Positions 3,340 through 30,489 of a stretch of DNA of 64,000 nt are shown one piece after another. Position 1 is the stretch's first letter. The number at the start of each line of letters is the position of its first letter. Source of the DNA: an uncultured Acidimicrobiales bacterium. Lineage in GTDB: Bacteria; Actinomycetota; Acidimicrobiia; Acidimicrobiales; SZUA-35. The translations under genes were made by a program, and so were the position numbers. Under the pieces are notes generated by a model. That model saw only the letters and a program-made list of their open reading frames with translations. It was not told the origin of the DNA and made no database searches. The stretch lies in assembly GCA_963775125.1 (NCBI GenBank), contig CAVZHQ010000004.1:7549-71548 (forward strand), given 5' to 3'.

Positions 3340-3455
3340 CGGAGACGCTTCGAGCCCGAGGACTGGCCGTGTGCGACCTGACCGATGGCCAGGTCGCGGC
3401 CGACCGGCTGGGGGTCGGGCCCTGGCACCCCCGAGTCCACGAGCTGACGTCGTGA
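3286..3455 (+). pseudogene. truncated receiver-domain fragment, out of frame with the cyclase 3-prime end
   Basis: The last cyclase codons read ERVDVVVVDDDA. Shifting frame at about 3322 continues NLVDLLTETLRARGLAVCDLTDGQVAADRLG, a receiver N-terminus, then stops at 3453-3455 after about 55 residues. Confidence 0.45.
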
Positions 3456-3642
3456 AGCTCCGCCGGCCGTCGCCTCCGCATTGGTCAACGTCGCCCCACG
3501 GGGGATGATGGCGAAGATATGCACTTGGCTCTGCAGTTCGTGGTGGTCGGTACCGGCCAACTCCCCACGAGGTGACACATCCATGTGAAGCGACCGAGGT
3601 CATGTCCATGGACCGAAGCCGACGCAGAGCAGGAGCGGGTGG

Positions 3643-3681
3643 TGTCGGAGGGGGATTGCCGCCCTTGACACACGCCGCCGG
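3643..3681. repeat. tRNA-Leu 3-prime-end-like remnant, copy A (most diverged)
   Basis: TGTCGGAGGGGGATTGCCGCCCTTGACACACGCCGCCGG. Same orientation and same opening motif as copies B-H. Confidence 0.5.
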
Positions 3682-3948
3682 ACTAGGTTCGACATTCGTC
3701 GATCCAACGCCGTCGCCAGGGATCGGCCCGCTCCTTTCCCGACCGCTCTGAGCGCCGGCCTGGCACCGACGAGCCTGGTGGTCGCCTGCCTCTATCCCGC
3801 CCTCGGCTCCTGAGATCAGCGATTCGCCCGATCGGCGGAGCGGGACCTTCGCCTCTGCCCAACTCGAGCTGGACCTCACAGAATGGATCTGCCTCCGAGA
3901 GGCGACCGAATGAGAACATCGATTCAGAGAAGCCATGAGGTGGCAGCG

Positions 3949-4278
3949 ATGACGAAGACCGATGTGAAGACTGCGTGGAGCAAGGTAGGAGACGAGCTCT
4001 CCGGACTCGGGCTCAAGCTCAAGTACCACATACAGGGAGAGTTCGCCGACGATGAGGACGGCGACGAGGTCAAAGCCGCGCTCAAGCGCCTCGCTGACGC
4101 CATCGACGACACCGTCGACGCCGCTGGAAACGCAGCCAAGGACCCTGCGGTGCGCGAGGACGTGAAGAACGCCGGCCAGTCGTTGATAACTGCTCTCGCC
4201 ACAACAATGAACGAAGCAGTAAAGGCGTGCCGGTCAGCGAGTAACGAAACCGGCCGCAATAAACGAGACGACAACTGA
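3949..4278 (+). CDS. small acidic hypothetical protein
   Basis: ATG 3949 preceded by GAGGTGG. 109 aa (MTKTDVKTAWSKVGDELSGLG...) with helical, protein-like composition. No family recognised. Confidence 0.45.
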   Translation: MTKTDVKTAWSKVGDELSGLGLKLKYHIQGEFADDEDGDEVKAALKRLADAIDDTVDAAGNAAKDPAVREDVKNAGQSLITALATTMNEAVKACRSASNETGRNKRDDN

Positions 4279-4765
4279 CGCCCAAACGTGAGCTTGACCG
4301 CCGGCACCTTCTCGAGCGAGGGCCTTGAGCTTGGGATGCATCTGCCATCGCCGCCACCGCGAGCATTCCGAGCGTGACGACAGTGATGTCCACCGCGACG
4401 ACCTCTGCGGATCGCCATCGATCGAGCGCAGCGATCGAGCGCCGACTCCCGCACCGGGATCGACTACGACCGCTGGTGCGCCATCAATAGGGCTGGCGGC
4501 CAGGTCGGTCGCCCTCTCGACAATCGGATCGGGAGTGAACAAGGTCCCGAGACGCCGACAGCCGACGTCCTCAAGAGCTCGCGGCAACTCGCCCGTTCTG
4601 TCGACAAGCCAGGTGCGGTGGGCTCGAGCAAGATATCCGTTAGGCCGCTCCACGCGCCACCATGGTGCCGATCGCTCCTTGCGTTCACCAACCGCGTCGG
4701 CTTCAGTTCCAGTCGGGACCTCCGGCACTATGCGGGGTTGCGGGATGCGGCGAGACTCTGCTTCG

Positions 4766-6438
4766 ATGGTTGACTCAACGTTCGAGGCATCCGGTCGCCG
4801 TCCCGGTGAACCGGCCGACCCGTCCCACGACAGCAGTCCTGGTGGCCTTTCGCGCTCCCTCGGCCTGGGCCAGATCACCGCAAGCGGGGTCGGGATCATC
4901 ATCGGCGCCGGGATCTATGTCCTACTCGGGGCCGCCACCGCCGAGGCGGGCGCCGGGGTGTGGCTGGCGTTCCTCGTCGCCGGAGCCCTCAGTGCGTTGA
5001 CCGCGCTCAGCTACGCCGAGCTCGCCGCCATGTTCCCCAACGCCGGCGCCGAATTCGACTACACCCGTCGAGTCGCCCCCGACTGGGCCGCCTTCGTCGT
5101 CGGTTGGGTCATGATCCTCGGACTTGTCATCGCTGCCGCAGCGGTATCGCTGGGCTTCGCCAGCTACCTCCGATACTTCATTGACCTTCCACAACGCGTC
5201 GGCGCATGGGGACTGCTTGGCTTCATCACCATCGTCGCCCTCGCCGGAATCGAACAATCCGCACGACTGACCGTTGCCTTCTCCGCGATCCAGGTCGGCG
5301 GACTCGCCGTGATCGTGGCGATCGGCATTCCCCACATCGGCGACCACAACCTTGTCGAAGGCTCCTCAGCGTCCGGTGTCATCACCGCCGCGGCGTTGGT
5401 GTTCTTCGCTTTCGTCGGCTTCGACGAAGTCATCACGCTCGCCGAAGAGACAACCAACCCCGCCCGGACAGTGCCCCGAGCCCTCCTCCTCGCGTTGGCA
5501 ATTTCAACCATGCTCTACGTTGCCGTAGCGATCGCCGGTATCAGCGTCCTCGGACCCGTAGCGCTCGCCGAATCCGAACAACCACTCGCCGACGTAATGA
5601 GCGAAGCGATCGGCTCCCAGTCAGCGAAGGTCGTCGCACTCGTTGCGTTGATCGCCACGACGAACACCACCCTGCTCGCAATAACCGCAGCGTCTCGCCT
5701 TCAGTTCGGTATGGCGGACACGGGCGCGCTCCCCGCTTCGTCGGCCGCCTCAGCGAGCGACGCTCGCCATGGGTCGCAGTACTCACAGCAGCGGCCGTCG
5801 CCGCGGGCTTCGTCGCAATCGGCGACCTCCGACTCGTCGCCAGCATCACCGACTTCGCGGTCTACCTCGTCTTCATTGCCGTGAACGTTACGGTCATCCT
5901 CTTGCGCTTCTGGCAGCCGAATCGGCGGCGGCCATTTGCCATACCCGGCACGATCGCGAACGTCCCGATATCCCCCGTGCTCGCGCTCGCCACCATCGCC
6001 GTCCTCCTGCCGTCGCTCGAACCGACAGCGATCTTCCTCGGTGCGATCGTCGTAGCCATCGGACTCGCTGTCTACGCTTCGCTCCGACACTTCCGACCGG
6101 CACAACCACAACCCCAGCTACTGCCCGAGGACCCCATGAAGCCACGCACCCGAATACAGCGCAGCGAGGCGACCCTCGTATCGGAAATCCTCCGCATCGA
6201 CTTCGCCGCCGTCGAATTCGATCTCGACCAGTTTCATCAGGGAATGGGTGTCGAACTCCAGCACGGGACTGGCGACCCCGACACGAACGTCACCAACGAC
6301 GATCTCATCACAATCGGCAAGCTCGCACTCGCCCACCTCAACGAAATCCCCGACTACTACACCCGCCTCGCCGCAATGCAAGCCCAGGCCCAAGCCCAGG
6401 CCCAGGCCCACAAGAGAATCGATGGGCATTCGAGGTGA
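4766..6438 (+). pseudogene. APC-family amino-acid permease with a non-membrane C-terminal extension; frame broken at 5731-5734
   Basis: Frame 1 reads GLGQITASGVGIIIGAGIYVLLG ... RLQFGMADTGALP. Frame 2 continues RFVGRLSERRSPWVAVLTAAAVAAGF ... to 6438. One extra C in the CCCC run at 5731-5734 would restore a continuous permease. Confidence 0.8.
6379..6411 (+). repeat. hexanucleotide repeat (CARGCC)x5 encoding QAQAQAQAQA
   Basis: CAAGCCCAGGCCCAAGCCCAGGCCCAGGCCCAC, read directly, at the extreme 3-prime end of the permease frame. Confidence 0.9.
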
Positions 6439-6612
6439 TCAAGGGTCGCACACACTTCTCGCCGAGCCCGAACCGAGTCAGCTCTCGGCGCCGTTGAGCT
6501 CACGTCCCGACCGGCTCCAGCCCCGCCGACTGAGGTGGACAACCGTTCTGTCGGCGTGACCTCGCAGCGAGCTGAACCTAAGTGGTCCTTCGCGGAAGTT
6601 CGTGGGTGTTGG

Positions 6613-6946
6613 TCAGGTCCAGGCGGTGGGGTCGTTGAGGTAGAGGCCGCAGGCGCAGTCGAGGGCTTGTTCGGGGGTGCCTGTGAGTCGGCCGTTGGGG
6701 AGGATCGAGTTCTCGTAAGCTGTCGTGGCTTGCGAGATAGATCGCGAATCCCCACAGCTCGGCGTTTTTCTTGTAGGTCAGCCGACAGAGCGGCATCGGG
6801 TCGCCGGTGAAATCGGTGCTGGTGAGGTAGACGAAGTCACCGCGGAACCGGATGCTGAGTTCGGCGAGGTTCGGCCAGCGTTGGTGGCGGTGGGTGTCGA
6901 GGCGGCGGGTGAGCAGTCGGCGGGTGTTGTCGGGGATCGCCATCAC
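6613..6946 (-). pseudogene. small conserved actinobacterial hypothetical protein, frame broken near 6717
   Basis: MMAIPDNTRRLLTRRLDTHRHQRWPNLAELSIRFRGDFVYLTS...CRLTYKKNAELWGFAIYLASHDS. After removing one T (AGCTTACGAG to AGCTACGAG) it continues YENSILPNGRLTGTPEQALDCACGLYLNDPTAWT and stops at 6613-6615. Confidence 0.5.
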
Positions 6947-6966
6947 CCGCTGATGGTAGGTGGTGG

Positions 6967-7131
6967 TCAGGCGGCGGGTCGGTGTGCGTCGATGCGGGCG
7001 CAGAGCTTGTCGAGGTCGTCACGCCCGAAGTTCCAGTCGAACGGGACGGCGCGCTGGTTGTAGCGCTCCTCGAACCTGGCGGGTCGTTCGGTGATTTCGT
7101 CGAGAGTGTTGACGTCCAACTTCGAGATCGC
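6967..7131 (-). mobile_element. IS630-family transposase C-terminal remnant
   Basis: Only the tail is present: LDEITERPARFEERYNQRAVPFDWNFGRDDLDKLCARIDAH. This matches the xYNxxAxPFxWxFTRxDL ending I know from IS630 transposases. No DDE core lies upstream. Confidence 0.5.
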
Positions 7132-7501
7132 CTGCGGCACCACCAATGACCCCGACACCATCGCCGGATTCACCCGGCGCATCGAAAGCGCCCGCTCGGA
7201 ACGAAACGGCGCCGAGATCCGCTTGCGGCGAGCAACCAGCGGACGGGGCCTCACCGAAGCCGAGATCCGAGCGGTCGTCAGCAACCTCGCTGATGCGTTG
7301 GTACTCCTCGCCAACGCATCGCATCAGGATCGGCGACGGGTCTACGAGGCGGCACAACTCGAGGTTCTCTAAGATCACGAAAACAACCGGGCCCAGATCT
7401 CGGTCGCCCCGAGGGTTACTGGTGGTGTCGGATGGGGGATTACAACCCTTAACCCACGCCGCCACAGCAGGTGGATCCCGTTGGCGACAGAGGCAGCGTG
7501 A
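7091..7501 (+). pseudogene. large serine recombinase C-terminal remnant (in-frame TAA at 7370-7372), running into repeat copy B
   Basis: FTRRIESARSERNGAEIRLRRATSGRGLTEAEIRAVVSNLADALVLLANASHQDRRRVYEAAQLEVL resembles the coiled-coil tail of actinobacterial large serine recombinases. After the TAA the same frame stays open through copy B to TGA 7499-7501. No catalytic domain is present. Confidence 0.45.
7426..7501 (+). repeat. ~72 bp repeat family, copy B
   Basis: TGTCGGATGGGGGATTACAACCCTTAACCCACGCCGCCACAGCAGGTGGATCCCGTTGGCGACAGAGGCAGCGTGA. Plus-frame translation VGWGITTLNPRRHSRWIPLATEAA*. Confidence 0.8.
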
Positions 7502-7552
7502 GCGACCCTTACCGGCCGCCCGTGGCAACGGGCTGGACCGCTCGACATTACT

Positions 7553-7579
7553 CGTATGCAATACGTATACTGAACGTAT
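7553..7579 (+). promoter_or_regulatory. candidate operator: CGTAT x3 at exact 11 bp spacing upstream of the RHH antitoxin gene
   Basis: CGTAT at 7553, 7564 and 7575 inside an AT-rich patch (TCGTATGCAATACGTATACTGAACGTATG). The last copy overlaps the ATG at 7578. RHH antitoxins typically bind tandem repeats. Confidence 0.3.
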
Positions 7580-7829
7580 GACGCAGACGTTAAGCTTCCG
7601 AGCCGAAACCTCACTCGCCACAGAACTCGATGCCGCAGCGGCCGAAGCAGGCGTTCCGCGGAGCGACCTGCTCAACCAGGCTGTCCGCGAGTTCCTCTAC
7701 CGCCTCCGATGCGAGCGCGACGCCGAGCGGTACGCCCTGCAACCGTTCACCGCAGCCGAGACGGCGGCCTGGCCGAACGAAGCATGGCCAGACGATGACA
7801 CCGACTGGACCGAAGTGTTCAGCCAATGA
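7578..7829 (+). CDS. ribbon-helix-helix antitoxin (MazE/CopG-like)
   Basis: 83 aa, MTQTLSFRAETSLATELDAAAAEAGVPRSDLLNQAVREFL (RHH pattern). ATGA overlap with the downstream toxin gene. Confidence 0.7.
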   Translation: MTQTLSFRAETSLATELDAAAAEAGVPRSDLLNQAVREFLYRLRCERDAERYALQPFTAAETAAWPNEAWPDDDTDWTEVFSQ

Positions 7830-8143
7830 AGCGCGGCGAGATCTGGTTTGCCGATATCGGACGAGGCGGGGATCGCCCCGTCCTCATCCTCACACGCGAT
7901 CCCGTCGCCGACCGTATCGACGCAGTCGTCGTAGCCCATCTGACAACGACAATTCGCGGCCTGACATCGGAACTGCCACTGGGCCCCGCCGACGGCCTCC
8001 AACGGGACTGCGTCGTCTCCTTCGACAACCTCCACACGATACCGAGATCGTCATTTCGCCGACGCGTCGCGGTCCTCCGCCCGTCACGACTCGACGAAGC
8101 ATGCGACCGACTGGGCGACGCGCTGGGCTGCGGCGACCACTGA
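7826..8143 (+). CDS. mazF: MazF/PemK-family endoribonuclease toxin
   Basis: 105 aa, MKRGEIWFADIGRGGDRPVLILTRDPV...VVVAHLTTTIRGLTSELPL...CVVSFDNLHTI. Typical PemK-fold signature. Confidence 0.85.
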   Translation: MKRGEIWFADIGRGGDRPVLILTRDPVADRIDAVVVAHLTTTIRGLTSELPLGPADGLQRDCVVSFDNLHTIPRSSFRRRVAVLRPSRLDEACDRLGDALGCGDH

Positions 8144-8336
8144 CGACCAACTCACGTCGATGCAGCGACGATGATCAGCGTCGCGCCCGCCTTGTTCTCG
8201 GGCGGTGACGACGCCAAGAACCTCGTCCGGCCCGTTTCGTTCACAGTGGCCTGTACAAGTGCCCCGGCGGCCGTGACCTGCTTCAGTGGTCTGCCCCATC
8301 GACTTCACTTGCGGCGGTGCCGGACCCGGATACGGG

Positions 8337-8455
8337 CTCTGGCCACTCGACCACACCATCACCTGGACCGAGCGGCAACTCGAACGCCGCGTCATCGACC
8401 ACATCCAGCACGAAGACGCTCACCCCGCCACCCGCTCGACGCAGCAACCACCCAC
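8337..8455 (+). mobile_element. integrase-core (rve) transposase C-terminal remnant
   Basis: LWPLDHTITWTERQLERRVIDHIQHEDAHP resembles the ECLDH..I....HL.R.L.EY..HYN..RPH tail. It is paralogous to the remnant at 13306-13407. Confidence 0.3.
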
Positions 8456-8883
8456 ATACAAACCAGTCGCACTTCGGCGATGGCCCCGGATCCGGCTCGA
8501 CTCCGAGCTGTCATTGGTTGCTGCGGTAGGTGCACTCGGGATCGGCGCTGGCCGACACGCCTGGCGGGAATCGCGTGTCAGGGTCGTACCCAATGCTGGC
8601 TCGGGCCCCGCCGAGGAGATCGACGTGGCTCACGTTGAGACGGGCCGCAGCAGCAGAGATCGCCTCAATCTCTGACTCTGACACGCAATCAATCGGGTCG
8701 AAGACGACGCAATCGGCGATGCCACCCCCGAACAGGTCGGTAAACAGCACCCCCCTCCGCCCTCCAACGACGCCTCGGACATCGGACCACACGGGCGGGA
8801 GGCCACCCTGCACTCGAGGCGGCGCAGGCCCAGCGAGCTGCACCGCCCATTGCAGGAAACCGATGGACGAACATCTGTTCCTA

Positions 8884-8956
8884 TGTCGGAGTGGCGATTA
8901 CAAACCTAAACCCACGCCGCCGAAGCCGGTGGATCCCATTGGCGCAAGCGGCGTGA
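8884..8956 (+). repeat. ~72 bp repeat family, copy C
   Basis: TGTCGGAGTGGCGATTACAAACCTAAACCCACGCCGCCGAAGCCGGTGGATCCCATTGGCGCAAGCGGCGTGA, translating as VGVAITNLNPRRRSRWIPLAQAA*. Preceded by CGAACATCTGTTCC, which resembles the flank of the real tRNA. Followed by the stem-loop GCGGC-TTCG-GCCGC at 8968-8981. Confidence 0.8.
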
Positions 8957-9083
8957 CAACCTGGTGGGCGGCTTCGGCCGCGCAATCGCGACGGCCTCAT
9001 CAACGAATACCCACATGCCGCCTGACCATCCACGACGCAATATCAGGCACCCACACGGTTGGGCCCGTCGGGTCTGCTTTGGG

Positions 9084-10165
9084 CTATCTGGCGATGACGT
9101 ACCAGTTGTTCTGGATGTCGTGTTCGAGTTCGTTCGTCTGTATCGACGTGAAACCGGCTTCGGTCAGGTACTCACGAGTCTTTTCCTCACCCCACATCGC
9201 GCCGAGACCTTCGCCTCCCTGAGCGAGCGAGACAGTCATGCAATGCATGCACGACACCGTGTAAAGAAGTGGTCCGATGGGGTGATCGATGTTGTTGTGC
9301 GGGAACGTCGACCCCTTGATGTCTTGCATCAGGTACACCCCGTCGGCCTTAAGGGCGCGATTGATGCCCTTCAGCACGTTGAGCGGCTGGGCCTGATCAT
9401 GGACAGCGTCGAACGTGGTGATGAAGTCAAACTCGTCAACGGGTGCCGTGACGTCGAAGTCGCTCAGATCGCGAGCGACGAACTCCACGTTCGACAGCCC
9501 ACGCTCGGCTGCCTGCGACCGCCCATAGGCGATCGCTTCGTCGGAGAGATCGAGGCCGACGAAGCGGCTGTTAGGAAATAGTTCGGCCAGTCGGGTGATG
9601 ACGCGGCCCTGGCCGCAGCAACATCGAGCATGCGGATGCCCGCCTCTAGTCGCTGCGTCAGTCCGGGAATCAACGGCAAGATGTCACTCTCGAGTCCCGA
9701 CATCACGGTCAGGGCGCTCTCCTCGGCCATCACGGTGTGGAACCGTGGATAGCGGTCGTACGGCACCCCGCCGCCGGCTCGGAAACACTCAGTGATGTCG
9801 TCCTCGACCGCGCCGAGCAAGGCGATGTACTGGGCGAACATCGCCATGTTGTCGGCGCCGGCTGCACGGGCCAGGAATGCCGAATGCTCGGCCGGCAGAC
9901 GGAACGTCAAACGGTCTTGGTCGACCACGTCGACAACCCGGGAGGTCACCATCGCCCCCAACCACTCCCGCACGTACCGCTCGTTCAGCCCGGCCGCGGC
10001 TGCGATCTCGGTCGAGGTGGCCGGCTCCATGCCGTTCATCGTGTCGAACAGACCCGTGCGATGGCCGATCGATGCCATGAGACACAACGCACCGTCGTTG
10101 AGCGCGCCGACGAAACGTTCGGCGAACGCACCAGCCCTGTCGTCATCGAAGCTCGGCACGCCCAT
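9084..10165 (-). pseudogene. class I SAM-dependent methyltransferase with N-terminal winged-helix/dimerisation domain; frame broken near 9619
   Basis: The N-terminal ORF reads ...GIRMLDV then goes off frame. Restoring one base (GTTGCTGC to GTTGGCTGC) gives DVGCGQGRVITRLAELFPNSRFVGLDLSDEAI (SAM motif I) and joins ORF 9084..9488 (FDFITTFDAVHDQAQP...). Confidence 0.8.
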
Positions 10166-10473
10166 CGATCACCTCCATGTGACTGGATCACCTCTCTGCT
10201 GACACCGGGATTGTAGAACGCGCTCTCAACGGCGTCATCACCGCCACAGTACTGAGACGCCCGGCACAGGCCCGGACGCGATTTTCGTGCGCAACACCCA
10301 GGCCACGCAGGAACACTCTGCCGACCACGCCCTCGGACCAGGGATCTGCACCCACAACGCCCGGATGGGTTCGACGCACTCAGCCCCGAATCGAGCGCGA
10401 CGGCACACAGGCATAGGCGACCACCTGGCGCCGGGCCCTCCCAGTGCTTGCCCTCGCTGGCCCCGGGAGTTAG

Positions 10474-11007
10474 TTCGTCGCAGCCATCATCCGTGCTGCC
10501 GGCATCGCCAGCCTTGACGGCGAACTCAACTGGAACAGCGGCCCCGAGGGGGTCGTCATGTCGCTCGGCGTGTCATTCTTTCCCGCGACGTACACCCTTC
10601 TCGGCCTCGTCATCACCCGCCGCGCCGTCCGCACCGGCGTCGCCGTGACCGGCCTCGGCCTGCTCGGCCTCGGCGCATTCGCCGGCATCGCATTCTTTCG
10701 CGTCTTCATGGCCAAGTTCACCGACGAAGGACTCGACCCCAACGCGATGAACCAGGCCTTCGAAGCGACCCACGTCGGGACATCGCGGCAATCATCAACC
10801 TCGTCAACTTCGCCGCATGGCTCACCGTCGGAATCGCCATCCTTAAGACGACAGTCGAACCTCGCTGGGTCGGAGCGTCCTGCATCGGCGGCGTGATCGC
10901 AGCGCTCCTCGCCAATCGCGTTCGAGTTGCTCTGGCCACTCAGCGCTGGCCTCTGGCCTGGAGCGACCATCGGCGTTGCACGTGCTTGGACTCGCACCGC
11001 CAAATGA
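10474..11007 (+). pseudogene. decayed small membrane protein (at least two frame breaks)
   Basis: Hydrophobic segments are spread over three frames: SLGVSFFPATYTLLGLVITRRAVRTGVAVTGLGLLGLGAFAGIAFF / DIAAIINLVNFAAWLTVGIAIL...GGVIAALLA / IAFELLWPLSAGLWPGATIGVA. No family recognised. Confidence 0.3.
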
Positions 11008-11148
11008 GACGCCCCGCCCAGATCGCCGACCCAGCGGCGGCCCGAAGTCTCGGTATCGGAACAACTACCGGTCCTACGATATGACCCACGGGCCACCAGG
11101 CCCCGTCTGACCAGGAGAAACGGCGGCTCCGTGGGGGTTAAACTCGGG

Positions 11149-20493: not shown

Positions 20494-20529
20494 TCCTCGT
20501 TATGGGTTACGTAAGGGAAGGCGGACGGC

Positions 20530-22803: not shown

Positions 22804-23073
22804 TGTCGGAGGGGCGACTTTAACCCAAAGTACACGCGTCCCCTGGGGCGCCGAATTGCGAGTCACATGAGCGTTCTAGCTGGTCAGACGCTCTCTGGTG
22901 TCACCAATCGCCTGGCCAATGTCGCCGAGGATCATCGCAAGGTCTTGCGCGTATGCAAGCAGACGAACGACATCGACGTTGTCGACCCGCTCGAAGTAGA
23001 ACCACCCACATGGAAACCCTTCGAACCGACGGGACCGCAGACCTGGGACACCGGACAGCTCACCGATCCGCAG
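22804..23073. repeat. long direct repeat, copy F (tRNA-like remnant plus ParE-like 3-prime half)
   Basis: TGTCGGAGGGGCGACTTTAACCC... aligns with 11149-11430. Its left flank CGAACACTTGTTCGATG matches the flank of the real tRNA (CGAACATTCGTTCGATG at 30389-30405). Confidence 0.8.
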
Positions 23074-23235
23074 TTGCACTGCTCCCCAGATTGTGGCGGC
23101 CATAGAACATCGGGTGATCGCGCTCGAAGAGACCGCTTCCATCAGGAAGCGGACGGAATCCGTGTCGGTTTGAACAGACAACACCCAACTGTCGGGCAGA
23201 TAAACGTGCTCAGGTCCAGAAGTTGACTCGCTCAC
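22876..23235 (-). CDS. ParE-like ORF (C-terminal half nearly identical to parE at 11257, N-terminal half diverged)
   Basis: 119 aa. ...AVQLRIGELSGVPGLRSRRFEGFPCGWFYFERVDNVDVVRLLAYAQDLAMILGDI. Faint N-terminal similarity (RFLMEAVSSSAI vs RFFNAAIESLGV). The start GTG 23235 overlaps the stop of the upstream NTase gene (GTGA). Functionality uncertain. Confidence 0.55.
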   Translation of the reverse strand: MSESTSGPEHVYLPDSWVLSVQTDTDSVRFLMEAVSSSAITRCSMAATIWGAVQLRIGELSGVPGLRSRRFEGFPCGWFYFERVDNVDVVRLLAYAQDLAMILGDIGQAIGDTRERLTS

Positions 23236-24005
23236 CCGTGGTCACCGGCCCATATTCGTTGGTGAGCCCCGATGCACCACGCATCGATCTTCTCCCGTTC
23301 AGGTGTCGGGCGGATCGATTCGTCGTTGCCGATGGCTTCGAGCTGGCTATCGAGTTCGAGGCTGCGCTCCCACCACTCGTCGAAGTCGACCTTGCCGTAG
23401 CGAACGGCGCGAAGCCATTCAGCCGGTTCACCCTGAATCGGAAGCTCGAGCCTGCCTGTCGACAGAAGCTCGAGACACTGGAACCCAAGGCGTGCGCAGT
23501 GCATCGCGTACTTGGTGTCGTACCCGAACTCGTTGACCAACTCCTCGCGGCCGCCACTCCCCCGCTTACCGTGGCCGCCGCCAGCGACACCGAGTAGCCG
23601 GCGGGCCTGGGACTGCATGTACCCGCGGTAGCGAGGCACGACATGACGGCCAACGAACGCTTCACCGAGCGCTTGCAGCTCCTCGCCCATCGGCGTCGAG
23701 TACTCGATGGGTGCCCACATTGTCATCAAGATCGACGGGTTCCCGGCCGCCGCCATCCGGACGAAACGGCGCAACGAGTGCAGCGTCCGATCGGTGTCAC
23801 CTGGCCCGGATCGTGACCCCTCAGGTTGGGTGCGCTGCATCACCGTCTTGAAGCCGTGCTCGTCCAGGCCGAGTAGCTGTTCCGGTGTTTCAACGACGAC
23901 GGCCAGCTGGTCGTGATCCTCACCACCATCGATCCCGGTGCCGTCCGCGGTCGAACCCACCTCGACCATCAGAATCGTCGTCTCAGGCAGGGGCGGGATC
24001 TCCAT
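23232..24005 (-). CDS. nucleotidyltransferase, Pol-beta superfamily (COG3541 / Nuc-transf-like), paralogue 1
   Basis: Start at ATG 24005 (MEIPPLPETT). VGSTADGTGIDGGEDHDQLAVV fits the GS-x9-[DE]x[DE] NTase motif. The helical C-terminal half (YDTKYAMHCARLGFQCLELLSTGRLELPIQGE) matches my recollection of COG3541 proteins. Confidence 0.65.
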   Translation of the reverse strand: MEIPPLPETTILMVEVGSTADGTGIDGGEDHDQLAVVVETPEQLLGLDEHGFKTVMQRTQPEGSRSGPGDTDRTLHSLRRFVRMAAAGNPSILMTMWAPIEYSTPMGEELQALGEAFVGRHVVPRYRGYMQSQARRLLGVAGGGHGKRGSGGREELVNEFGYDTKYAMHCARLGFQCLELLSTGRLELPIQGEPAEWLRAVRYGKVDFDEWWERSLELDSQLEAIGNDESIRPTPEREKIDAWCIGAHQRIWAGDHG

Positions 24006-24162
24006 CACACCATCGTGGTCGACAAATTGCGTCACCGGGTTGAATTCTGCGCCGGAGTGGTCCCGTCGATGGGCACACACCGCCTCCGCGTGATGCGAGG
24101 TCACACTCAGGCGAGCAACCAGTGACGCCCATCGAGCGATGCTGCCCTGCCCTACAGACGCC

Positions 24163-24975
24163 TCACCGACTGGACCGCCGGAGTACCTTGTTGATCCTGA
24201 CCCATCGGGAGGGCTTCTCGACTTCGACGCCGCCCATGAAAGCATCGCCCAGTCGTGACCCACGGCTCGGTTCGCCGTCAATCAGTCGTCGTGCCGACTC
24301 CCTCACGGCATCGTCCACAGTCGCCTGGTCGCCCTGGATCACGCGGTCGTCGAGCATCACATACCAGTCGTCGAGCCCGGAGAACTCGGCGAGCTCTTCT
24401 CGGTAGTTCGAGTTCTGGTAGAGCTTCCACAGCTCGACCGCGAGCGCCCGGGCGGACCCGCCATTGTCCAGGAACCGCTGAGCCTCAAGGCGGGCGAGCG
24501 CAACGTATGCGTCCTCGGAGTGCTTCTCGGCAACAGTTAGCCCGAGCTCGTCAAAGACATCGACAGCGATGTCGCTTGCTTCCTCGTCAGCGAACCGCGC
24601 AGGCGCCCCAGCGAGAACCCGTAGCGACCGCGTGTCCAGCCCCTCCATCAACGCAGCGACCGCAGCGTCAACGAGCGGCTTCCCATACCCGGTTCCCGCC
24701 CACTCGATCGCGGCTTCTTCGAATCGACGGACAGCTCCTGCCGCAACACCGCTATGACCTGTTGCCGGTCCAGACCAAAGATCGACGTTGCCGGACTCGA
24801 GAAACTCGCCTACAGCGCCGGCGGCAAAGACAGGGTCCGCCGGATACTCTCCACCCAGGTACTCGACCAGCTCGCCCGGCAAGAACGGACCAAGCGACGT
24901 TACGTAGTCGTCGAACTCCGCTTGGACGGCGCGCCAGTCTGCGTAGCGCTTCTTCGTCAGGAGCATCCCGTGCAT
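24163..24975 (-). CDS. hypothetical protein (shares a helical domain with 28959..29489)
   Basis: Start at ATG 24975 (MHGMLLTKKRYADW). VDAAVAALMEGLDTRSLRVLAG...FDELGL aligns with VDAAVQALLAGVESPSFVPIAG...LDELNL in the other ORF. Confidence 0.5.
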   Translation of the reverse strand: MHGMLLTKKRYADWRAVQAEFDDYVTSLGPFLPGELVEYLGGEYPADPVFAAGAVGEFLESGNVDLWSGPATGHSGVAAGAVRRFEEAAIEWAGTGYGKPLVDAAVAALMEGLDTRSLRVLAGAPARFADEEASDIAVDVFDELGLTVAEKHSEDAYVALARLEAQRFLDNGGSARALAVELWKLYQNSNYREELAEFSGLDDWYVMLDDRVIQGDQATVDDAVRESARRLIDGEPSRGSRLGDAFMGGVEVEKPSRWVRINKVLRRSSR

Positions 24976-25019
24976 CGTGTGGACGATCGTGATTCGGTCT
25001 TCCGATATGACTGGTCCGT

Positions 25020-25253
25020 TCACCGGTGATCCCTCGGGACACAATCAAGATGGGCATCGCTCGGCGAGGGAGGGCGACCCGGGCAGTACGGGCACGAGGA
25101 ATCGCCGCACGCCGTCTCGAGCCACACATCGCACCGGACGCAGAAGAAGGCATCGAACTCTTCACAGAGCACGACCACGCTGCCACAGGTGTGAACCTCG
25201 TCGTTCACAATGACATCGAGGTCGCTCGGTGAGTGCCGACCGGATACGGACAT
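25020..25253 (-). CDS. small Cys-rich hypothetical protein (possible zinc ribbon)
   Basis: 77 aa, HTCGSVVVLCEEFDAFFCVRCDVWLETACGDSSCPYCPG with CxxC pairs CVRC and CPYC. Third-position GC looks coding-like. Could be spurious. Confidence 0.35.
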   Translation of the reverse strand: MSVSGRHSPSDLDVIVNDEVHTCGSVVVLCEEFDAFFCVRCDVWLETACGDSSCPYCPGRPPSPSDAHLDCVPRDHR

Positions 25254-25596: not shown

Positions 25597-26951
25597 TCAC
25601 GGCCCCAAAGATCCGGACGGCTTGCTTGGTCGCCGGCGGGAACGAAGAGTTGAGACCCTGTCCGAGTCAGCATCGCTTCTGCCCGCTGGGCCCGCGGCGA
25701 GGCCGATGTCTTGGATTTCGGTCTCGCAGTCGTAGAGGGCCGGCCTTGCGAGATCGGTGGGTAGGCGACCGCCGCCGGCTACCTCAAGAACCCGGGCCAC
25801 GCGGCACCGGGCGTAGGAGTACTCGGCTTGATCGAAGATCTCTGTGATCAGCCTGATGGGGATGTCGTCGGGTAGGCGGGCGAACGCGTCGATATAGCTG
25901 CACAGCCCGTAGAAGTCGCGATCTGCCCATGCGGCTTCAGCGCCGACGACAAGTACGGGGACGTCTCTGGACTCGGCGTAGTTGGCGAGGACGTTCTGGG
26001 CGGCGACGCGTCGTCCATCGTCTGCTCGCAGCCAAGACCGAGCCAGCGCCAGGGTGTGAACCGGACCGAGGTTCGAGACGTAGCGAATCGCCTCCAGTCG
26101 CTTCCGCCCCGACTCGTCGGCCGCAAGAATCCGCTCGGCTGCGGGCAACCCGCCGGGGTCGTCCAAGCGCGCCAATGCCTGGAAGGCGACGAAGCGCGCG
26201 CTTCCCTCGCGCTCCAGAGCAGCGAGAAGCTCGTCGCGCTCGTCCCGACGGAGCATGTTCGTGAGCCGGTGAAGGAGACGTTTCGGCGGGACACCCGGCC
26301 AATCGTGTTGGAGAAGGTCAGCTGCCGAGAGCTCCATCGACGGCAGCTCGGCGCTAACCCCCCGACGGCGGCGACGTTCGTCGAATTGGTCGATCGCTGA
26401 CTGGATCCAGGCACGACCCGCCCCGAGTTCCTCCCAGGGCAGCTGGTACCGCCACCGCTGAACAATGGCGACGAGTTCGTCGCCGTCGAAGCGGCCTTCC
26501 AGTACCTCGGGGAGCCTGCGGTGGAGATCGCCGGGCGTCTGCGAGATCTCGTAGATGGCGTCGTCCCACTGCTCGCCGATGCGGACGTGATCGAGCAGAG
26601 CGTCGCCTGCGCCTGTCATACCGTCGGCCGCCAGCTCGGCGAGGACGCCGACGACCAAGCGCTGATCGCGATCTGCCTGCGGTTCGGGGCAGTTCTGGGG
26701 GCGGAGGCGGTCCGGGTCGAAGTCACGCGGCGCGTGATGAGGTCTGCGTAGTACCGGTCTCGCGATTCCACTTGCTGATCCCAGCGGGGATCGTACACGA
26801 CACAGTCCCAGATCAGCTCAGCGGCCTCGCCCGAGGGGAGTGCGATGGCTTCCAGGAACCCGGCTCCGGTCCCCCGCTGCAGCTTGCCGAGCACGGTGTC
26901 CGGGTTGGCGAGCCACTCGAGCCCCGACGGCGACCCGTCTACTCCACTCAT
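25597..26951 (-). pseudogene. large helical-repeat-like hypothetical protein; frame broken near 26726
   Basis: ORF 26616..26993 (MSGVDGSPSGLEWLANPDTVLGKLQRGTGAGFLEA...RWDQQVESRDRYYADLITRR) continues in another frame as DFDPDRLRPQNCPEPQADRDQRLVVGVLAELAADG... (ORF 25597..26658). The ATG at 26951 overlaps the Barstar stop (TGATG). Confidence 0.45.
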
Positions 26952-27454
26952 CACAGTCCCCGTTTCGCGTTCAACCACTCCTTCGGGTTCCACGCGACTG
27001 GCTGGGCGGCTACTGGCGCCAGATGCAGCGCCGGATCATCGGACTGGAGGAAGGTGGCAAGTTGCCAGCCCCGCCGAACCGCTCCGATCCCGGCGCCAGC
27101 GAGTATGTCCACCACAGCCTGGGAAGCCTGCGGCTCTCGGCTCAGGAAGCTGTCGAAGTGTTCGACCACGATCAGACCAGCCGGCGCATGGCGACCGAAG
27201 CCGTAGTCGCCTTGAACGACGTCGTACATGCAGTCGTTGAGGGCATCGAGATTCCGGCCGTAGTAGTCCGGGAATGACAGAGCCTGCGCGAAGGCTGTGT
27301 GCATGTCCTCAGGAGTAGTCCAGCCCTTGGCGTTGAGGTGGACGATCTCCCACCCGGCTTTGCGTGCGTCCTCGACGGCTTCGTCGAGGATCTGGCGGTT
27401 CCAGAACAGCTGGACGAATGGAAGCCGATCCGGGTGCAGCTCCGTGCCAGCACT
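26951..27454 (-). CDS. Barstar-like (barnase-inhibitor family) domain protein; start codon unresolved
   Basis: AFAQALSFPDYYGRNLDALNDCMYDVV matches the Barstar core LALPEYYGENLDALWDCL. The domain clearly extends upstream of the first ATG (27304): EIVHLNAKGWTTPEDMHT. The frame is open back to the TGA at 27455-27457 with no ATG or GTG. Confidence 0.7.
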   Translation of the reverse strand, partial: SAGTELHPDRLPFVQLFWNRQILDEAVEDARKAGWEIVHLNAKGWTTPEDMHTAFAQALSFPDYYGRNLDALNDCMYDVVQGDYGFGRHAPAGLIVVEHFDSFLSREPQASQAVVDILAGAGIGAVRRGWQLATFLQSDDPALHLAPVAAQPVAWNPKEWLNAKRGL

Positions 27455-28078
27455 TCACGTGTCGCGGCCTTCGAAGGCGGCCGGTCCGTGGCGCAGAGCG
27501 TTCGCGGCGAGCGCCATTGCGGTTCTGAAGTCAGCGGCAAGGGAGCCGCTCGACCACTCCGAGCAGACGCAGGTGAAGGTCTCGTCGTGGAAGGTGATGA
27601 TCACCTGCCGGCTGGATAGTTCGACGGGGCGTACTTCGTGGGCCTGGTAGTGGACAACGCCGGACCCATAGAGAGGGTGTTCGTGCAGCCGTTCGTCGTT
27701 CGGAGGACCCATGCTGACTTCCCGAATGCCCTCGAACACGATCCATCCCAGATTGCGGATGGTGGCGTCCGCGGGGTCGACCACGGTGACCGAGGTGCCG
27801 TCCCAGTCCGGGTCCGGCTCGAGTCCGGCGTGGAAGACAAGGACCGCTCGCAAGCCATCGGTGACGAGATGCGGGACAGGAGCGCCCGGATCGATCGCCA
27901 CTCCCAGATCCACCGGCTCAGCCCATGGCCGCCCGGCTTGCGCCGCGGATCGTCGTCCCGCTGCTGCTTCCGCCTCGTATCCAGCCAGTGCCGCCGCGAT
28001 CGGATCGGTCCCGTGCCCAGCCGTGTGGCGACGCAGCGAATTCGCAAGACGAGCGATTCGGGGCCTGTCCTTGGTCAT
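27455..28078 (-). CDS. hypothetical immunity-like protein, same frame as the Barstar domain
   Basis: Start at ATG 28078 (ATGA overlap with the NTase-2 stop). Contains SMGPPNDERLHEHPLYGSGVVHYQAHEV, a motif I recall from uncharacterised actinobacterial proteins. Ends at a TGA that is in frame with the Barstar domain. Confidence 0.45.
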   Translation of the reverse strand: MTKDRPRIARLANSLRRHTAGHGTDPIAAALAGYEAEAAAGRRSAAQAGRPWAEPVDLGVAIDPGAPVPHLVTDGLRAVLVFHAGLEPDPDWDGTSVTVVDPADATIRNLGWIVFEGIREVSMGPPNDERLHEHPLYGSGVVHYQAHEVRPVELSSRQVIITFHDETFTCVCSEWSSGSLAADFRTAMALAANALRHGPAAFEGRDT

Positions 28079-28848
28079 CCGAGCCCGTCCGCCCACACCC
28101 GCTGGTGCGCGTCGATGCACCACCCATCAATGCGAGCGCGATCCGGTTCGGGCCGAAGTGACTCGTCGTCACCGATCGCCTCGAGTTCTGCGTCCAACGT
28201 GAGGCTGCGCTCCCACCACTCGTCGAAGCTGACCTCGCCGTAGCGAACGGCACGCAGCCACTCCCGGGGCTCGCCCTGAATCGGCAGCTCCAGGCCGCCG
28301 GTTTTGAGCAGTTCGAGACACTGGAAGCCGAGCCGGGCGCAGTGCATGGCGTACTTGGTGTCATAGCCGAATTCTGCGATCAGCTCCTCACGGCCCCCTC
28401 CACCTCGCTGGCCGTGGCCGCCACCGCTCAGACCCAACAGCCGCCGGGCCTGAGACTGCATGCACCCCCGGTAGCGCGGGACGACATGACGGCCGACGAA
28501 CGCATCACCGAGCGCACGGAGCTCCTCCCCCACCGGCGTGGTGTGCTCGACAGGCGCCCACAAGGCCATCAGGATCGATGGGTTGCCCGATGCAGCAAGC
28601 CGCACGAACCGGCGCAACGAGTGCAACGTTCGATCGACGTCGCCGGGACCCGACCGAGCCCCTTCCGGCTGCGTGCGCTGCATCACGGTCTTGAAGCCGT
28701 GCTCGTCCAGACCGAGCACCTGCGCTGGGGTCTCGACCACGACGGCGAGCTGATCCTGATCCTCGCCGCCATCAATGCCGGTTCCGTGCGCGGTCGAACC
28801 AACCTCGACCATCAGAATCGCCGTATCGGGCAGCGGAGGGATCTCCAT
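28075..28848 (-). CDS. nucleotidyltransferase, Pol-beta superfamily (COG3541-like), paralogue 2
   Basis: Start at ATG 28848 (MEIPPLPDTA). 257 aa, gap-free collinear with paralogue 1; 212 of 257 positions identical by my hand count. Confidence 0.65.
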   Translation of the reverse strand: MEIPPLPDTAILMVEVGSTAHGTGIDGGEDQDQLAVVVETPAQVLGLDEHGFKTVMQRTQPEGARSGPGDVDRTLHSLRRFVRLAASGNPSILMALWAPVEHTTPVGEELRALGDAFVGRHVVPRYRGCMQSQARRLLGLSGGGHGQRGGGGREELIAEFGYDTKYAMHCARLGFQCLELLKTGGLELPIQGEPREWLRAVRYGEVSFDEWWERSLTLDAELEAIGDDESLRPEPDRARIDGWCIDAHQRVWADGLG

Positions 28849-28958
28849 CACACAATGGTGGCCCAATCCCTCACCGACCGCTGCCATTTCCTCGGATCGT
28901 TCGGTGCCGGCCGGAGAGACTGAGTGCATGCGACGCAGGGCCGGTCCACCCTGGAGAC

Positions 28959-29489
28959 GTGACCGACCGATCCCTTGTCGACCACCCAGCGTTTCGCTAC
29001 TTCCTTGAAGAAGCGGCGCTGTGGCGCCGAGCCCAGACGCGCGCCACCACCGTCGTTGACGCAGCCGTGCAGGCCCTCCTCGCCGGCGTCGAGTCGCCCT
29101 CCTTCGTCCCGATCGCCGGACTCCGCGCAGCCGAGGCCGAAGGCGAACTCGGAGAACTCCTCGCCGCGGCGCTCGACGAACTCAACCTGAACTGCCTTCG
29201 CTACGGCGACCCCGAGAACGATGTGCTTGCTGCAGCCGCCCTGTGTCGCAGCTACCTCAACGGCCACCTCGAGGCCCCGCAGCTGACACAACAGATCCAC
29301 CGGGTCTACGGGCACGACTGCCACCCACTCGTCGAGCGCCTGTCGATCCTCGATGACTCCTTCGACACCCTCGGCTACACCCCGAACCCGACGCGAGTAC
29401 AACTCGAACGCAGCACCTACGAAGCCGCCCAGGCGCTCCAGATCGAGGCAGATGCCATCTACCGACGATCGAGTAGTGAAACCTCGTGA
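28959..29489 (+). CDS. hypothetical protein (paralogous helical domain to 24163..24975)
   Basis: 176 aa, divergent from the NTase-2 gene. See the alignment under 24163..24975. Confidence 0.5.
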   Translation: MTDRSLVDHPAFRYFLEEAALWRRAQTRATTVVDAAVQALLAGVESPSFVPIAGLRAAEAEGELGELLAAALDELNLNCLRYGDPENDVLAAAALCRSYLNGHLEAPQLTQQIHRVYGHDCHPLVERLSILDDSFDTLGYTPNPTRVQLERSTYEAAQALQIEADAIYRRSSSETS

Positions 29490-30380
29490 CCTGGCTGCGA
29501 ACGAACTTCGTCGGTCCTGTCGTCGATCTGCTCTCCGAACTCGAGGTCGGCGAGTCGCTCATCGATGCCGAGCACAACGCCTGCGTTCGCCTCTCCCTCG
29601 GGGTGGAGGGGCTGTTCCGCAGCGAGATCAGACATCGCTGGCCCGGCTGGCCACCCGAGTCGACCACTGATGGCAGCAGTGTCATGGTGTGCAGCCGCAT
29701 CGACAACGACACGCTGATCGTCGTCGGCTTGACCGACAGCGACTTCGCAGGCGAGCAGTTCCCGTTCCAGCTCGAGATCGCCATCGGGACCGGCGAACTG
29801 TCGGTCACCGTGCGCATTGGCCAACTTGACTCAACAGCGAGCGGGCCCCCTCGACTCCGCGACGCCGTCATCACCATCGGACGGAGTCACACCGCCGGTG
29901 GCATCCGCCCGATTCTCACGAACGGACGAATACAAGCCGAGGTGGAGTGGACCGAGGTCATCAGACTCGCCATACCTGTCGAGCCCGAACCGTCACCGCG
30001 CCTTGTTGCCCAGCGAGTTCCGGAATCGCATCATCGAGTACCTCGAACTCGCCTCGTCGTTCGAAGCCCAGCAGCACTACCGGGAACACGTCCCGATCGC
30101 CCACGTACCCAACGAAGTCATCAACCAGTGGGAAGACTGGGTCCCGACGCCACCCACGAACGCCGAGTGGGATGACGTCGTGTACTCGGCCGACGAACTC
30201 ACAGCCATCGAAACCTTTAACTCCACATGGGATCGGGTGGTGGCCGCAATGCCGAACGAGCTTCAAACGCTCGAACAGGTGCAAACGCTCGCCGAGTGGA
30301 CCGAACTCCGAGACGCCGCAACAGCGGCCAGCGCCGTCTTGAACCGTCGCGGGCAATTTCCAGAGGGCCAGGAGATCTAG
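29486..30380 (+). CDS. hypothetical protein(s): one frame-broken gene or two genes
   Basis: ORF 29486..30175 is protein-like up to about 29990 (..AEVEWTEVIRLAIPVEPEP). A second frame is protein-like from about 29995 (LLPSEFRNRIIEYLELASSFEAQQHYREHVPIAHVPNEVINQWEDWVP...) to 30380. The only start option there is TTG. Confidence 0.35.
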
Positions 30381-30388
30381 GGTCTGAT

Positions 30389-30402
30389 CGAACATTCGTT
30401 CG
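30389..30402 (-). terminator. short hairpin immediately 3-prime of tRNA-Leu
   Basis: CGAAC-ATTC-GTTCG. A compensated version (CGAACA-CT-TGTTCG) sits at the same position next to repeat F. Confidence 0.3.
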
Positions 30403-30405
30403 ATG

Positions 30406-30489
30406 TGTCGGAGGGGGGACTTGAACCCCCACGTCCTAACGGACACTAGCCCCTCAAGCTAGCGCGTCTGCCTATTCCGCCACTCCGAC
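30406..30489 (-). tRNA. tRNA-Leu, anticodon GAG, type II (long variable arm), no encoded CCA
   Basis: The reverse complement folds by hand. Acceptor GTCGGAG/CTCCGAC plus discriminator A, anticodon arm CTAGC-TTGAGGG-GCTAG, variable arm GTCC-GTTA-GGAC, T arm GGGGG-TTCAAGT-CCCCC. Confidence 0.9.

Follow-up and report, generated by a model that had tools for sequence, protein, structure and literature searches.

We analyzed a stretch of 64,000 nucleotides (hereinafter, the window) from the genome of an uncultured Acidimicrobiales bacterium (assembly GCA_963775125.1, contig CAVZHQ010000004.1, positions 7,549 to 71,548), in which a region of about 27 kb (3340-30489) ends at a tRNA-Leu(GAG) gene and contains multiple partial copies of the 3' end of this gene. 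This region very likely is the decayed product of many successive insertions of elements of the actinomycete integrative and conjugative element (AICE) type at the 3' end of tRNA-Leu(GAG), mediated by a large serine recombinase (LSR). The partial copies are att junctions of LSR elements rather than tRNA pseudogenes and, judging from the sequences compared here, the main recombinase appears to be an LSR rather than the usual tyrosine recombinase. The original prediction for this DNA, made from the nucleotide sequence alone, had proposed repeated site-specific integration at the tRNA gene followed by decay, and this proposal is supported by the restriction of the repeats to a single locus, the variability of the 3' side of the tRNA gene, the intact integrases of related genomes, and the integrase remnant that adjoins one of the copies. 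Coordinates are window positions unless prefixed with a contig; C4 denotes the source contig, in a genome assembly of 5.04 Mb.

The anchor of the array is a single, intact tRNA-Leu(GAG) gene, on which ARAGORN and Rfam searches of the window agree and which had been placed at virtually the same position (30406-30489, minus strand) in the original prediction:

30405-30489, minus strand: tRNA-Leu(GAG) anchor (ARAGORN, Rfam)

The plus-strand complement of the tRNA 3' end, TGTCGGAGGGGGGACTTGAACCCCC, starts at 30406 and forms the attachment-site half contributed by the chromosome; a hairpin flank, GATCGAACATTCGTTCGATG, lies directly before it, at 30386-30405. Seven co-oriented copies of the 3'-end complement, at 3643, 7426, 8884, 11149, 12506, 22804 and 25505, lie on the 3' side of the tRNA gene, so that the whole set of co-oriented repeats described originally was recovered at the listed positions, as was the hairpin flank CGAACAnnTGTTCG that copies 8884 and 22804 share with the tRNA. 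An eighth co-oriented copy, TGTCGGAGGGAGGACTTGAACTCCAGCTCCACAGGC, lies 5.9 kb beyond the left end of the window, at C4:1677, and combines a type E right arm (also present in genome G062) with a left arm that is a diverged LSR 3' end. Because of this further copy, the genes at 1-3339 of the window lie inside the array, which reaches at least to C4:1677 and has a minimum length of 36 kb with 8 or more junctions. The genes between C4:1677 and the window start encode a membrane GGDEF protein, a signal peptidase-like protein and two secreted proteins.

The 8-mer TGTCGGAG, the complement of the acceptor 3' strand of tRNA-Leu(GAG), occurs 12 times in the window compared to 4.6 expected, a count reached in none of 100 shuffles. 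Between 3340 and 30489, there are 7 exact plus-strand matches, whereas the genome-wide density predicts 0.9 (Poisson P = 4e-5); the variant TGTCGGAT at 7426 comes in addition. Counting both strands, the density of the 8-mer per 64 kb is 4.25 genome-wide and 12.4 on C4. The earlier chance estimate of one 8-mer per strand per 64 kb was too low, given that this genome of 66% GC shows about 2.1 per strand, and yet the enrichment is real because the copies share extended homology. A blastn search and a pattern scan of the whole assembly found the A and B arms (described below) and the 14-nt core on C4 only, so that the repeats are confined to this locus rather than dispersed in the genome. When aligned to all tRNA-Leu genes of the genome, every copy fits the 3' end of tRNA-Leu(GAG) best, with 14-21 of 23 bases matching compared to 11-17 for the other tRNA-Leu genes. 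It is extremely improbable, then, that the repeats represent a family of dispersed non-coding elements, terminators or small RNAs with no relation to integration: the arms do contain hairpins, often just 3' of minus-strand genes, as such a family would, but the locus restriction refutes it, the copies invariably share the orientation of tRNA-Leu(GAG) and cluster in its vicinity, Rfam matches nothing in the window except the tRNA, and the arms are conserved at the protein level in the LSR frame.

The identity of the copies with the tRNA ends after about 23 nt. The sequence that follows, described originally as T-arm-like, is an integrase-coding attP arm and not decayed tRNA. Two types of such right arms occur in the window. 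Type A is found at 3643 (decayed), 7426, 8884, 12506 and 25505, where 50-75 nt are held in common and the five arms differ from each other by 8-24%. Type B is found at 11149 (with an 11-nt internal duplication) and 22804, where the common sequence extends over about 255 nt at 92.5% identity (11177-11431 and 22821-23074). In addition, the segment 22783-22826 is 89% identical over 44 nt to the tRNA flank plus 3' end. Under the scheme favoured here, each copy would be a recombination junction that consists of a left arm (an integrase 3' end or a terminator-like hairpin), the core GTGTCGGAGGGG, and a right arm that is the attP half-site. The junctions of the window, with the peptides encoded in the LSR frame and ending at a stop codon, are as follows:

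3643-3751, plus strand: copy 3643, decayed type A arm with a 1-nt deletion, tail frame lost, 14/23 match to the tRNA end
7426-7501, plus strand: copy 7426, type A arm, left arm the LSR 3' end CCCCGAGGGTTACTGGTGG, tail GVGWGITTLNPRRHSRWIPLATEAA in the LSR frame
8866-8956, plus strand: copy 8884, hairpin left arm GACGAACATCTGTTCCTA, type A arm encoding YVGVAITNLNPRRRSRWIPLAQAA
11127-11266, plus strand: copy 11149, left arm CCGTGGGGGTTAAACTCGGG, decayed type B arm with the 11-nt internal duplication; opens the 255-nt repeat also present at 22821-23074
12478-12578, plus strand: copy 12506, hairpin left arm CCCCAGGccggtgaCCTGGGG, type A arm encoding CVGGAITTLNPRRRSRWLELVAAA
22783-22870, plus strand: copy 22804, hairpin left arm, type B arm encoding CVGGATLTQSTRVPWGAELRVT, a diverged version of the family consensus ending APWS.ELVAA
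25505-25577, plus strand: copy 25505, type A arm encoding RVGGGITTLNPRRRSRWIPLAKAA

The hairpin CCCCAGGccggtgaCCTGGGG of copy 12506 also follows the genuine tRNA in the related genomes G013 and G009.

One link of these junctions to serine integrases is a remnant that adjoins copy 7426:

7094-7425, plus strand: C-terminal remnant of an LSR, about 110 codons with an internal stop (7370-7372), in frame into the core of copy 7426

The remnant reads DRRRVYEAAQLEVL, a stop codon and DHENNRAQISVAPRVTGG; followed to 7501, the same frame reads DRRRVYEAAQLEVL, the stop codon, and DHENNRAQISVAPRVTGGVGWGITTLNPRRHSRWIPLATEAA with a second stop, that is, the LSR C-terminal remnant, then the core, then an A tail, and copy 7426 accordingly is an attP-like P-O-P' junction. 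In tblastn searches, the remnant matches the intact LSR of genome G110 at 37.5% over 112 aa (E = 3e-14) and that of G015 at 38.6% over 88 aa, and in a clustering of the predicted array proteins, the window open reading frame (ORF) 7106-7372 joins two full-length LSRs, from G024 and G015. The serine-recombinase remnant mentioned in the original prediction is thus present, as the sole serine recombinase trace in the genome, and the absence of an intact integrase was likewise stated correctly, this C-terminal stump being all that is left.

Intact LSR genes of the relatives encode proteins of 545-556 aa, with the catalytic serine motif in the N-termini YGRVSTEDQ (G015) and YGRVSTEDR (G110). The LSRs of G024 (locus L046, 14292-15962, 556 aa) and G015 (L047, 14264-15910, 548 aa) both consist of the Pfam domains Resolvase, Recombinase and Zn_ribbon_recom, and their genes run toward the core and stop inside it with TGT GTC GGA GGG GGG ACT TGA, encoding CVGGGT before the stop. 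The tRNA acceptor and T-arm, read as their complement, supply the last codons, VGGGT, and the stop codon lies within the complement of the T-loop. Intact LSR homologues also adjoin the genuine tRNA in G027 (L011; 59% over 501 aa) and in G110 (L090), which belongs to a different family of the same order. A protein database search retrieved 3420 LSR homologues at E <= 1e-30; 90 of the 120 closest ones end in VGGGT, and 8 have longer tails after VGG. Two LSR subfamilies account for the left arms GACGCGTGTACTAA and CCCCGAGGGTT, which are simply the 3' ends of their genes. In genome G013 (L048, G013:C5), a 742-aa ORF at 13305-15533 on the minus strand runs into the core from a left arm of the CTGACCAGG type and ends in FEKRVGGGT at its stop codon; no recombinase domain was detected in it by Pfam, and it may be spurious or else an unknown protein that uses the same trick.

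The nature of the inserted elements is illustrated by a 7.9 kb element in G024 (G024:C172, 22238-14310), which carries a core at each end and encodes an FtsK/SpoIIIE protein, a pSAM2-type RepSA (E = 5e-98) and the LSR, which is the AICE module set. No RepSA or FtsK-type match to the G024 proteins was found in the window or in the whole genome, nor was an intact integrase; given that all three are lacking, the window holds remnants and not an AICE.

An array built mainly by tyrosine integrases, through classical accretion of islands at a tRNA gene with the LSR remnant being incidental, is a distinctly improbable alternative, although tyrosine systems are well known to accrete in tandem (PMC3218068) and, in G015, tRNA-Leu(GAG) does have a tyrosine integrase gene as its neighbour, along with a direct repeat at a distance of 10 kb that is identical to the tRNA over 53 nt. 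On C4, there is no signal of a tyrosine integrase (PF00589) even at E = 1e-3; the tRNA identity of the copies stops at about 23 nt rather than extending over a 53-nt block as in the tyrosine element; and, when translated in the LSR frame, both arm types (A and B) yield LSR tails.

The coding capacity of the right arms is apparent across the relatives. In the LSR frame, type A arms read xVGG[GA]ITTLNPR[HR]RSxW[LI]xLxxAA followed by a stop codon; 35 of the 52 unique copies are exactly 24 codons long, 34 of the 52 end in -AA, and the stop codon can be TGA, TAG or TAA. No similar pattern exists in the other frames apart from that imposed by nucleotide conservation, and in the variable distal half of the A arm, the third codon position is the most variable one (entropy of 1.27, 1.09 and 1.60 for the three positions). 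Type B arms encode VGGA[TS]LTQSTRAPWS[AV][ED]L[VA]AA before a stop in 9 of 13 cases, with synonymous codons and different stop codons. Furthermore, a metagenomic LSR, P0123 (contig L093, at least 377 aa), continues in frame over a site with an L2 left arm, the core and a B-like right arm into CVGGATQTLSTWNPWTGSYVAA and a stop; it was the one LSR found in a search for proteins with a B tail. These patterns indicate that the A and B arms are protein-coding, most plausibly as alternative integrase tails of about 22-24 codons that usually end in -AA. The integrase ORF appears to cross attP, such that the integrated form would end in VGGGT, whereas the attP or tandem form would continue into an A or B tail. 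Two other explanations of the conservation of the arms were considered and rejected. If the A arm were coding on the minus strand, as the end of a gene with its stop codon at the TAA in CCCTTAACCC, the peptides upstream of the terminal GVG should be conserved, which they are not, and the respective ORFs range in length between 8 and 166 codons. An RNA structure or a hairpin similar to attC is a less satisfactory cause, given that the hairpins do fold but the coding constraint explains the conservation better.

Inverted repeats, read by eye, flank the core: GCGTGTACT/AGTACACGC are centred at core position 9, and GGTGGCTAATGG/CCAGTTGCCACC of the G024 element at position 8.5. The position of these centres suggests that strand exchange might occur within the GG at positions 8-10 of the core TGTCGGAGGGG.

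Taken together, the junctions and the genes of the relatives suggest the following scheme. AICE-type, pSAM2-like elements of Acidimicrobiales would insert repeatedly into the 3' end of tRNA-Leu(GAG) via the LSR, the gene of which, at one end of the element, would read across the attachment site, with the tRNA complement supplying the last codons, VGGGT, and the stop. In the attP configuration, the ORF would enter the A or B right arm instead and acquire a tail of 22-24 residues. After insertion, the element backbones (int, rep, tra) would be lost, leaving the integrase stump at 7094-7425, and the cargo would be kept: three toxin-antitoxin (TA)-type pairs, nucleotidyltransferases, a catabolic cluster and signalling genes, with retention favouring in particular the addictive TA modules. 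Elements with tyrosine integrases possibly joined the array, as in G015. The anatomy of the junctions, their link to LSR genes, the coding arms, the locus restriction and the recurrence in relatives are seen directly in the sequences, whereas the order of insertions, repeated insertion by a serine integrase at an occupied site and a regulatory role of the alternative tails are what we infer from them.

The same organization recurs in the family to which this genome belongs and across the order. On the tRNA side, the gene order gap-pgk-tpiA-secG-SBP5-tRNA is preserved, whereas the 3' side has unrelated content from one genome to the next, so that the relatives share synteny on the tRNA side only and not the content of the 27 kb. 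Repeats of type A are present in 38 of the 88 family genomes, in co-oriented clusters with a spacing of 0.8-5 kb: G097 has five A copies spaced by 0.77-1.7 kb, similar clusters are found in G041, G062 and G024, and the single-contig genome G049 has four copies directly 3' of tRNA-Leu(GAG). A search of 185,579 species genomes yielded 27 exact matches, 24 in metagenome-assembled genomes (MAGs) of the Acidimicrobiia lineage, 2 in genomes labelled Acidobacteriota and 1 in a genome labelled Microbacterium. Across these arrays, the right-arm classes are A, B, C, E and the true tRNA, and the left-arm classes are the hairpin CGAACAnnTGTTCG, GACGCGTGTACTAAyrAGTG, CTGACCAGG, GTGGGGGTT and CCCCGAGGGTTrC. 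Left and right classes combine freely around the invariant core GTGTCGGAGGGG, which is the outcome that exchange within the core would produce. At six loci (L040, L041, L045, L046, L050 and L054), left arms of the CTGACCAGG type contain an inverted copy similar to the tRNA end, TGTCGGAGGGGTGG, on the opposite strand; such copies lie 40-110 nt left of several cores.

This recurrence also bears on the possibility that the region derives from one or two large islands scrambled by internal duplication, insertion sequence (IS) activity and deletion, with most of the copies being duplicates rather than independent scars. In its favour are the 255-nt repeat at 92.5% identity and two nucleotidyltransferase paralogues of the RlaP type that are 80% identical over 300 nt, and fragments of IS elements of the rve family lie beside cores. 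Nevertheless, the five A arms are 8-24% apart and are joined to different left arms, each with counterparts in other genera; GC content varies between segments from 60.4% to 68.0%; the same mosaic logic with different contents is seen in many genomes; and the arm alignment suggests that the window copies do not form a clade. We therefore consider scrambling of one or two islands improbable as the main source of the copies.

Between the junctions lies the cargo, in modules that in the window mostly are 1.4-4.9 kb in size, with mixed gene orientation and with the segment GC content of 60.4%-68.0% compared to 66.1% for the genome:

1-3455, plus strand: sensor kinase, response regulator and Hpt-REC-GGDEF genes, and a truncated extra receiver N-terminus
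3752-7093: module 1 cargo, amino-acid permease (4325-5884), DUF5661 protein (5881-6438) and further ORFs, GC 64.3%
7578-8143, plus strand: module 2 cargo, ribbon-helix-helix (RHH) antitoxin and MazF/PemK toxin
8346-8456, plus strand, and 13300-13482: C-terminal remnants of IS transposases of the rve family
8988-9059 and 11964-12034: matching transposase 3' ends (GLINEY..AA before the stop)
9084-10165, minus strand: module 3 cargo, Rv2258c-like winged helix-turn-helix (HTH) and methyltransferase gene in two ORFs
11257-11834, minus strand: module 4 cargo, ParE toxin and ParD antitoxin
13458-22463: module 5 cargo, catabolic cluster, in a module of 10.3 kb with GC 68%
22876-25044, minus strand: module 6 cargo, ParE-like ORF, RlaP-type nucleotidyltransferase and one unknown ORF
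25597-30380: module 7 cargo, two ORFs homologous to ones in the G024 array, Barstar-like gene, second RlaP nucleotidyltransferase and small unknown ORFs

At the left end, the Hpt-REC-GGDEF gene ends in RVDVVVVDDDATSSIC with a stop codon, and the next frame continues with NLVDLLTETLRARGLAVCDLTDGQVAADRL (3286-3455), a frameshifted receiver N-terminus that is cut after about 45 residues. The truncated receiver gene described in the original prediction thus exists (plus strand, frameshifted, approximately 3300-3450), and it marks an internal breakpoint; the outer boundary placed at 3340 does not stand, given the copy at C4:1677. The two overlapping ORFs at 9084-10165, with winged-HTH and methyltransferase domains, probably are a single frameshifted gene. 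Module 5 encodes a split acyl-CoA ligase, an enoyl-CoA hydratase, a three-domain molybdenum hydroxylase, a short-chain dehydrogenase/reductase, an MBL-fold protein and a PaaX-type regulator; the ligase is present in two pieces on the minus strand (AMP-binding ORF, 14035-15234, and AMP-binding_C ORF, 13458-13982) and probably is a frameshifted gene or pseudogene. The Barstar-like immunity gene of module 7 (26951-28123, minus strand) has no barnase-type toxin in reach.

With respect to the smaller components, the TA modules reported inside the region were found (RHH-MazF, ParDE and the ParE-like ORF with an RlaP nucleotidyltransferase), and both rve remnants were located, whereas an IS630 remnant gained no support from Pfam or from tblastn with the DDE_3 transposase of a relative. 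A six-frame Pfam scan of 3340-4330, 6438-7580, 8143-9090 and 10165-11260 produced no match; the remnants are too short for Pfam and hence were detected only with the proteins of relatives. At distances of 35-110 nt on the left of cores, the window as well as L037 (14370-14442) and L035 (11251-11313) contain transposase 3' ends of the GLINEY..AA type together with IS termini, suggesting that an IS481-like element prefers to insert beside these junctions. Far outside the array, there is a tandem duplication at 53380-54171 (221 nt at 99% identity with a 381-nt period, and a third copy at 75%).

The small size and the contents of the modules bring up another interpretation, namely, that the locus is a working cassette platform, comparable to an integron or to a cis-mobilizable element (CIME), rather than a graveyard, with integrase-less modules that possess both half-sites being taken up, excised and rearranged in trans by the LSR of a visiting AICE. 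The modules measure only 0.77-2.6 kb in G097, G041 and G003 and 1.4-4.9 kb in the window, and many consist of a single TA pair; the arms are intact (24 codons, ending in -AA) despite the loss of the integrase bodies; and the left and right arm classes are freely recombined. In G062 (L037, G062:C11), a 1403-bp duplication at 99.2% identity (5025-6427 and 14448-15850) starts 28 nt left of two cores and looks like a recently duplicated or re-inserted module. The MazEF module is also shared between genera: 7707-8286 of the window and 15651-16230 of L043 (G046:C43), from another genus, are 91.4% identical at the nucleotide level over 580 bp, which exceeds the identity of core genes between genera (76-80% aa for TpiA) and therefore points to recent horizontal transfer. 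Several observations argue against the platform. The genome has no intact LSR of this family; the boundaries of the MazEF homology with G046 do not coincide with the repeats; pairing within modules is no tighter than pairing at junctions, both the right arm with the next left arm and the within-module pairs being well mixed in a test that cannot separate mobile modules from chance; the genes point in both directions; and neither attI nor a promoter logic is present. Besides, recombination between two attP-like sites is, to our knowledge, not a known activity of LSRs. On balance, a working platform is unlikely, although it is the strongest competitor of serial insertion followed by decay.

Serial LSR-mediated insertion itself has to contend with a number of points that weigh against it. 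Serine integrases normally recombine attP only with attB, so that tandem insertion at an occupied tRNA gene, which the P-O-P' junctions imply, is unexplained by canonical LSR behaviour, and no recombination directionality factor was identified; recurrent insertion could possibly proceed through element multimers, relaxed half-site recognition or recombination between neighbouring elements. Most of the modules are without an integrase remnant, and the hairpin, CTGACCAGG and GTGGGGGTT types of left arms were not linked to an integrase gene. A search of 5.8 billion proteins yielded no full-length LSR with an A tail. Neither an empty site nor a conserved distal flank was found in the relatives, and the genomes of the same genus are fragmented at this locus. 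The source genome is a MAG that is 90% complete, and C4 ends 1.7 kb left of the outermost copy, with the distal end of the array lying beyond the contig. Finally, given that the tyrosine integrase of G015 uses the same tRNA, part of the array could come from other recombinases.

In several respects, the elements are of a kind that is already known. In the survey of Ghinet et al. 2011 (PMC3218068), 19 of 144 AICEs encode serine recombinases, and eight Mycobacterium AICEs of this class are integrated in one tRNA-Leu gene, although integration of serine recombinases into tRNA genes is called rare; the same survey describes the tandem AICEs Fean5518/5534 and Sav3708/3728 and cites SXT/R391 arrays. 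The Mycobacterium AICEs combine a pSAM2-type RepSA, an FtsK-like translocase and an LSR with the 3' end of tRNA-Leu, the same set that is present in G024, and the likeness is one of module set and site: the host here belongs to Acidimicrobiales, and the window holds scars and cargo but no element. An attP-spanning integrase ORF, alternative tails and long arrays of scars are not described in the part of PMC3218068 available to us. Tandem AICEs and CIMEs likewise resemble the array in that elements lie head to tail at one tRNA gene with att repeats between them, and integrase-less derivatives are flanked by att sites; those tandems, however, involve two or three elements and tyrosine recombinases, whereas the array here spans 36 kb or more and has at least 8 junctions, modules of mostly 1-5 kb, and a recombinase of the serine type, which is strictly directional for attP x attB.

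Prochlorococcus tRNA-proximal islands and tycheposons are hypervariable, seeded by repeated integration at tRNA genes, and contain many partial tRNA repeats and cargo-only satellites. The repeats of these islands are true partial tRNA copies, and the phylum and the recombinases are different; in the array described here, only about 23 nt are tRNA-like, and the remainder is an integrase-coding arm. Integron cassette arrays and clusters of attC sites lacking integron integrases (CALINs) share with this array the small, often TA-bearing modules, the recurring recombination site and the frequent lack of a nearby integrase. Still, with no IntI, no folded site of the attC type and mixed gene orientation, the array is not an integron; it also lacks attI and Pc, and its site is a tRNA-derived LSR att junction.

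A closer parallel for the integrase ORF is the integration-dependent immunity of mycobacteriophage BPs, where attP lies inside an ORF and integration replaces the C-terminus of the protein (PMC4557955; Broussard et al. 2013). As in BPs, attP here is located inside an ORF, and -AA terminates the tail of the free form in 34 of the 52 A arms and in 9 of the 13 B arms; the split gene of BPs, however, encodes a repressor and is associated with a tyrosine integrase, whereas here the gene that is split encodes the serine integrase. Given that the tmRNA tag of the host, ANKADFALAA, ends in ALAA, the -AA tails look like a degradation tag, and by analogy with BPs, they may act as a proteolysis tag; this feature is not universal, as the tail of the G024 element ends in SSDR.

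A more speculative idea, which we put forward tentatively and regard as rather doubtful, is that the LSR is an integration-dependent switch with a degron tail, while its half-sites let visiting elements reshuffle modules, in an analogy with integrons. If so, the free circular element would make an integrase with an extra tail of about 17 residues that ends in an ssrA-like -LxxAA degron, and the integrated copy, completed by the tRNA complement, would end in VGGGT and escape the control by the tail; the tRNA-Leu locus would then be an integron analogue based on a serine recombinase.

What looks new is the lineage, the scale of a phenomenon that recurs across the family and beyond, the attP-spanning integrase ORF with conserved alternative tails, and the abundance of integrase-less modules of 1-5 kb that keep both half-sites. 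Serine integration at tRNA genes, although described as rare (PMC3218068), is represented here by a large family (3420 proteins), with most of the closest members ending in the tRNA-encoded VGGGT. The two alternative C-termini and what seems to be a tolerance of further insertions at a site already occupied could be of interest to those who study or engineer LSRs, and for genome annotation, the junctions mark hypervariable, TA-rich islands of the defence type and explain the assembly breaks at this locus. The attP-crossing ORF and the repeated insertion suggest a built-in link between the state of integration and the fate of the integrase, along with a relaxed site logic. An apparent string of tRNA pseudogenes thus becomes a readable record of the traffic of mobile elements in a poorly studied, uncultured order of actinobacteria.

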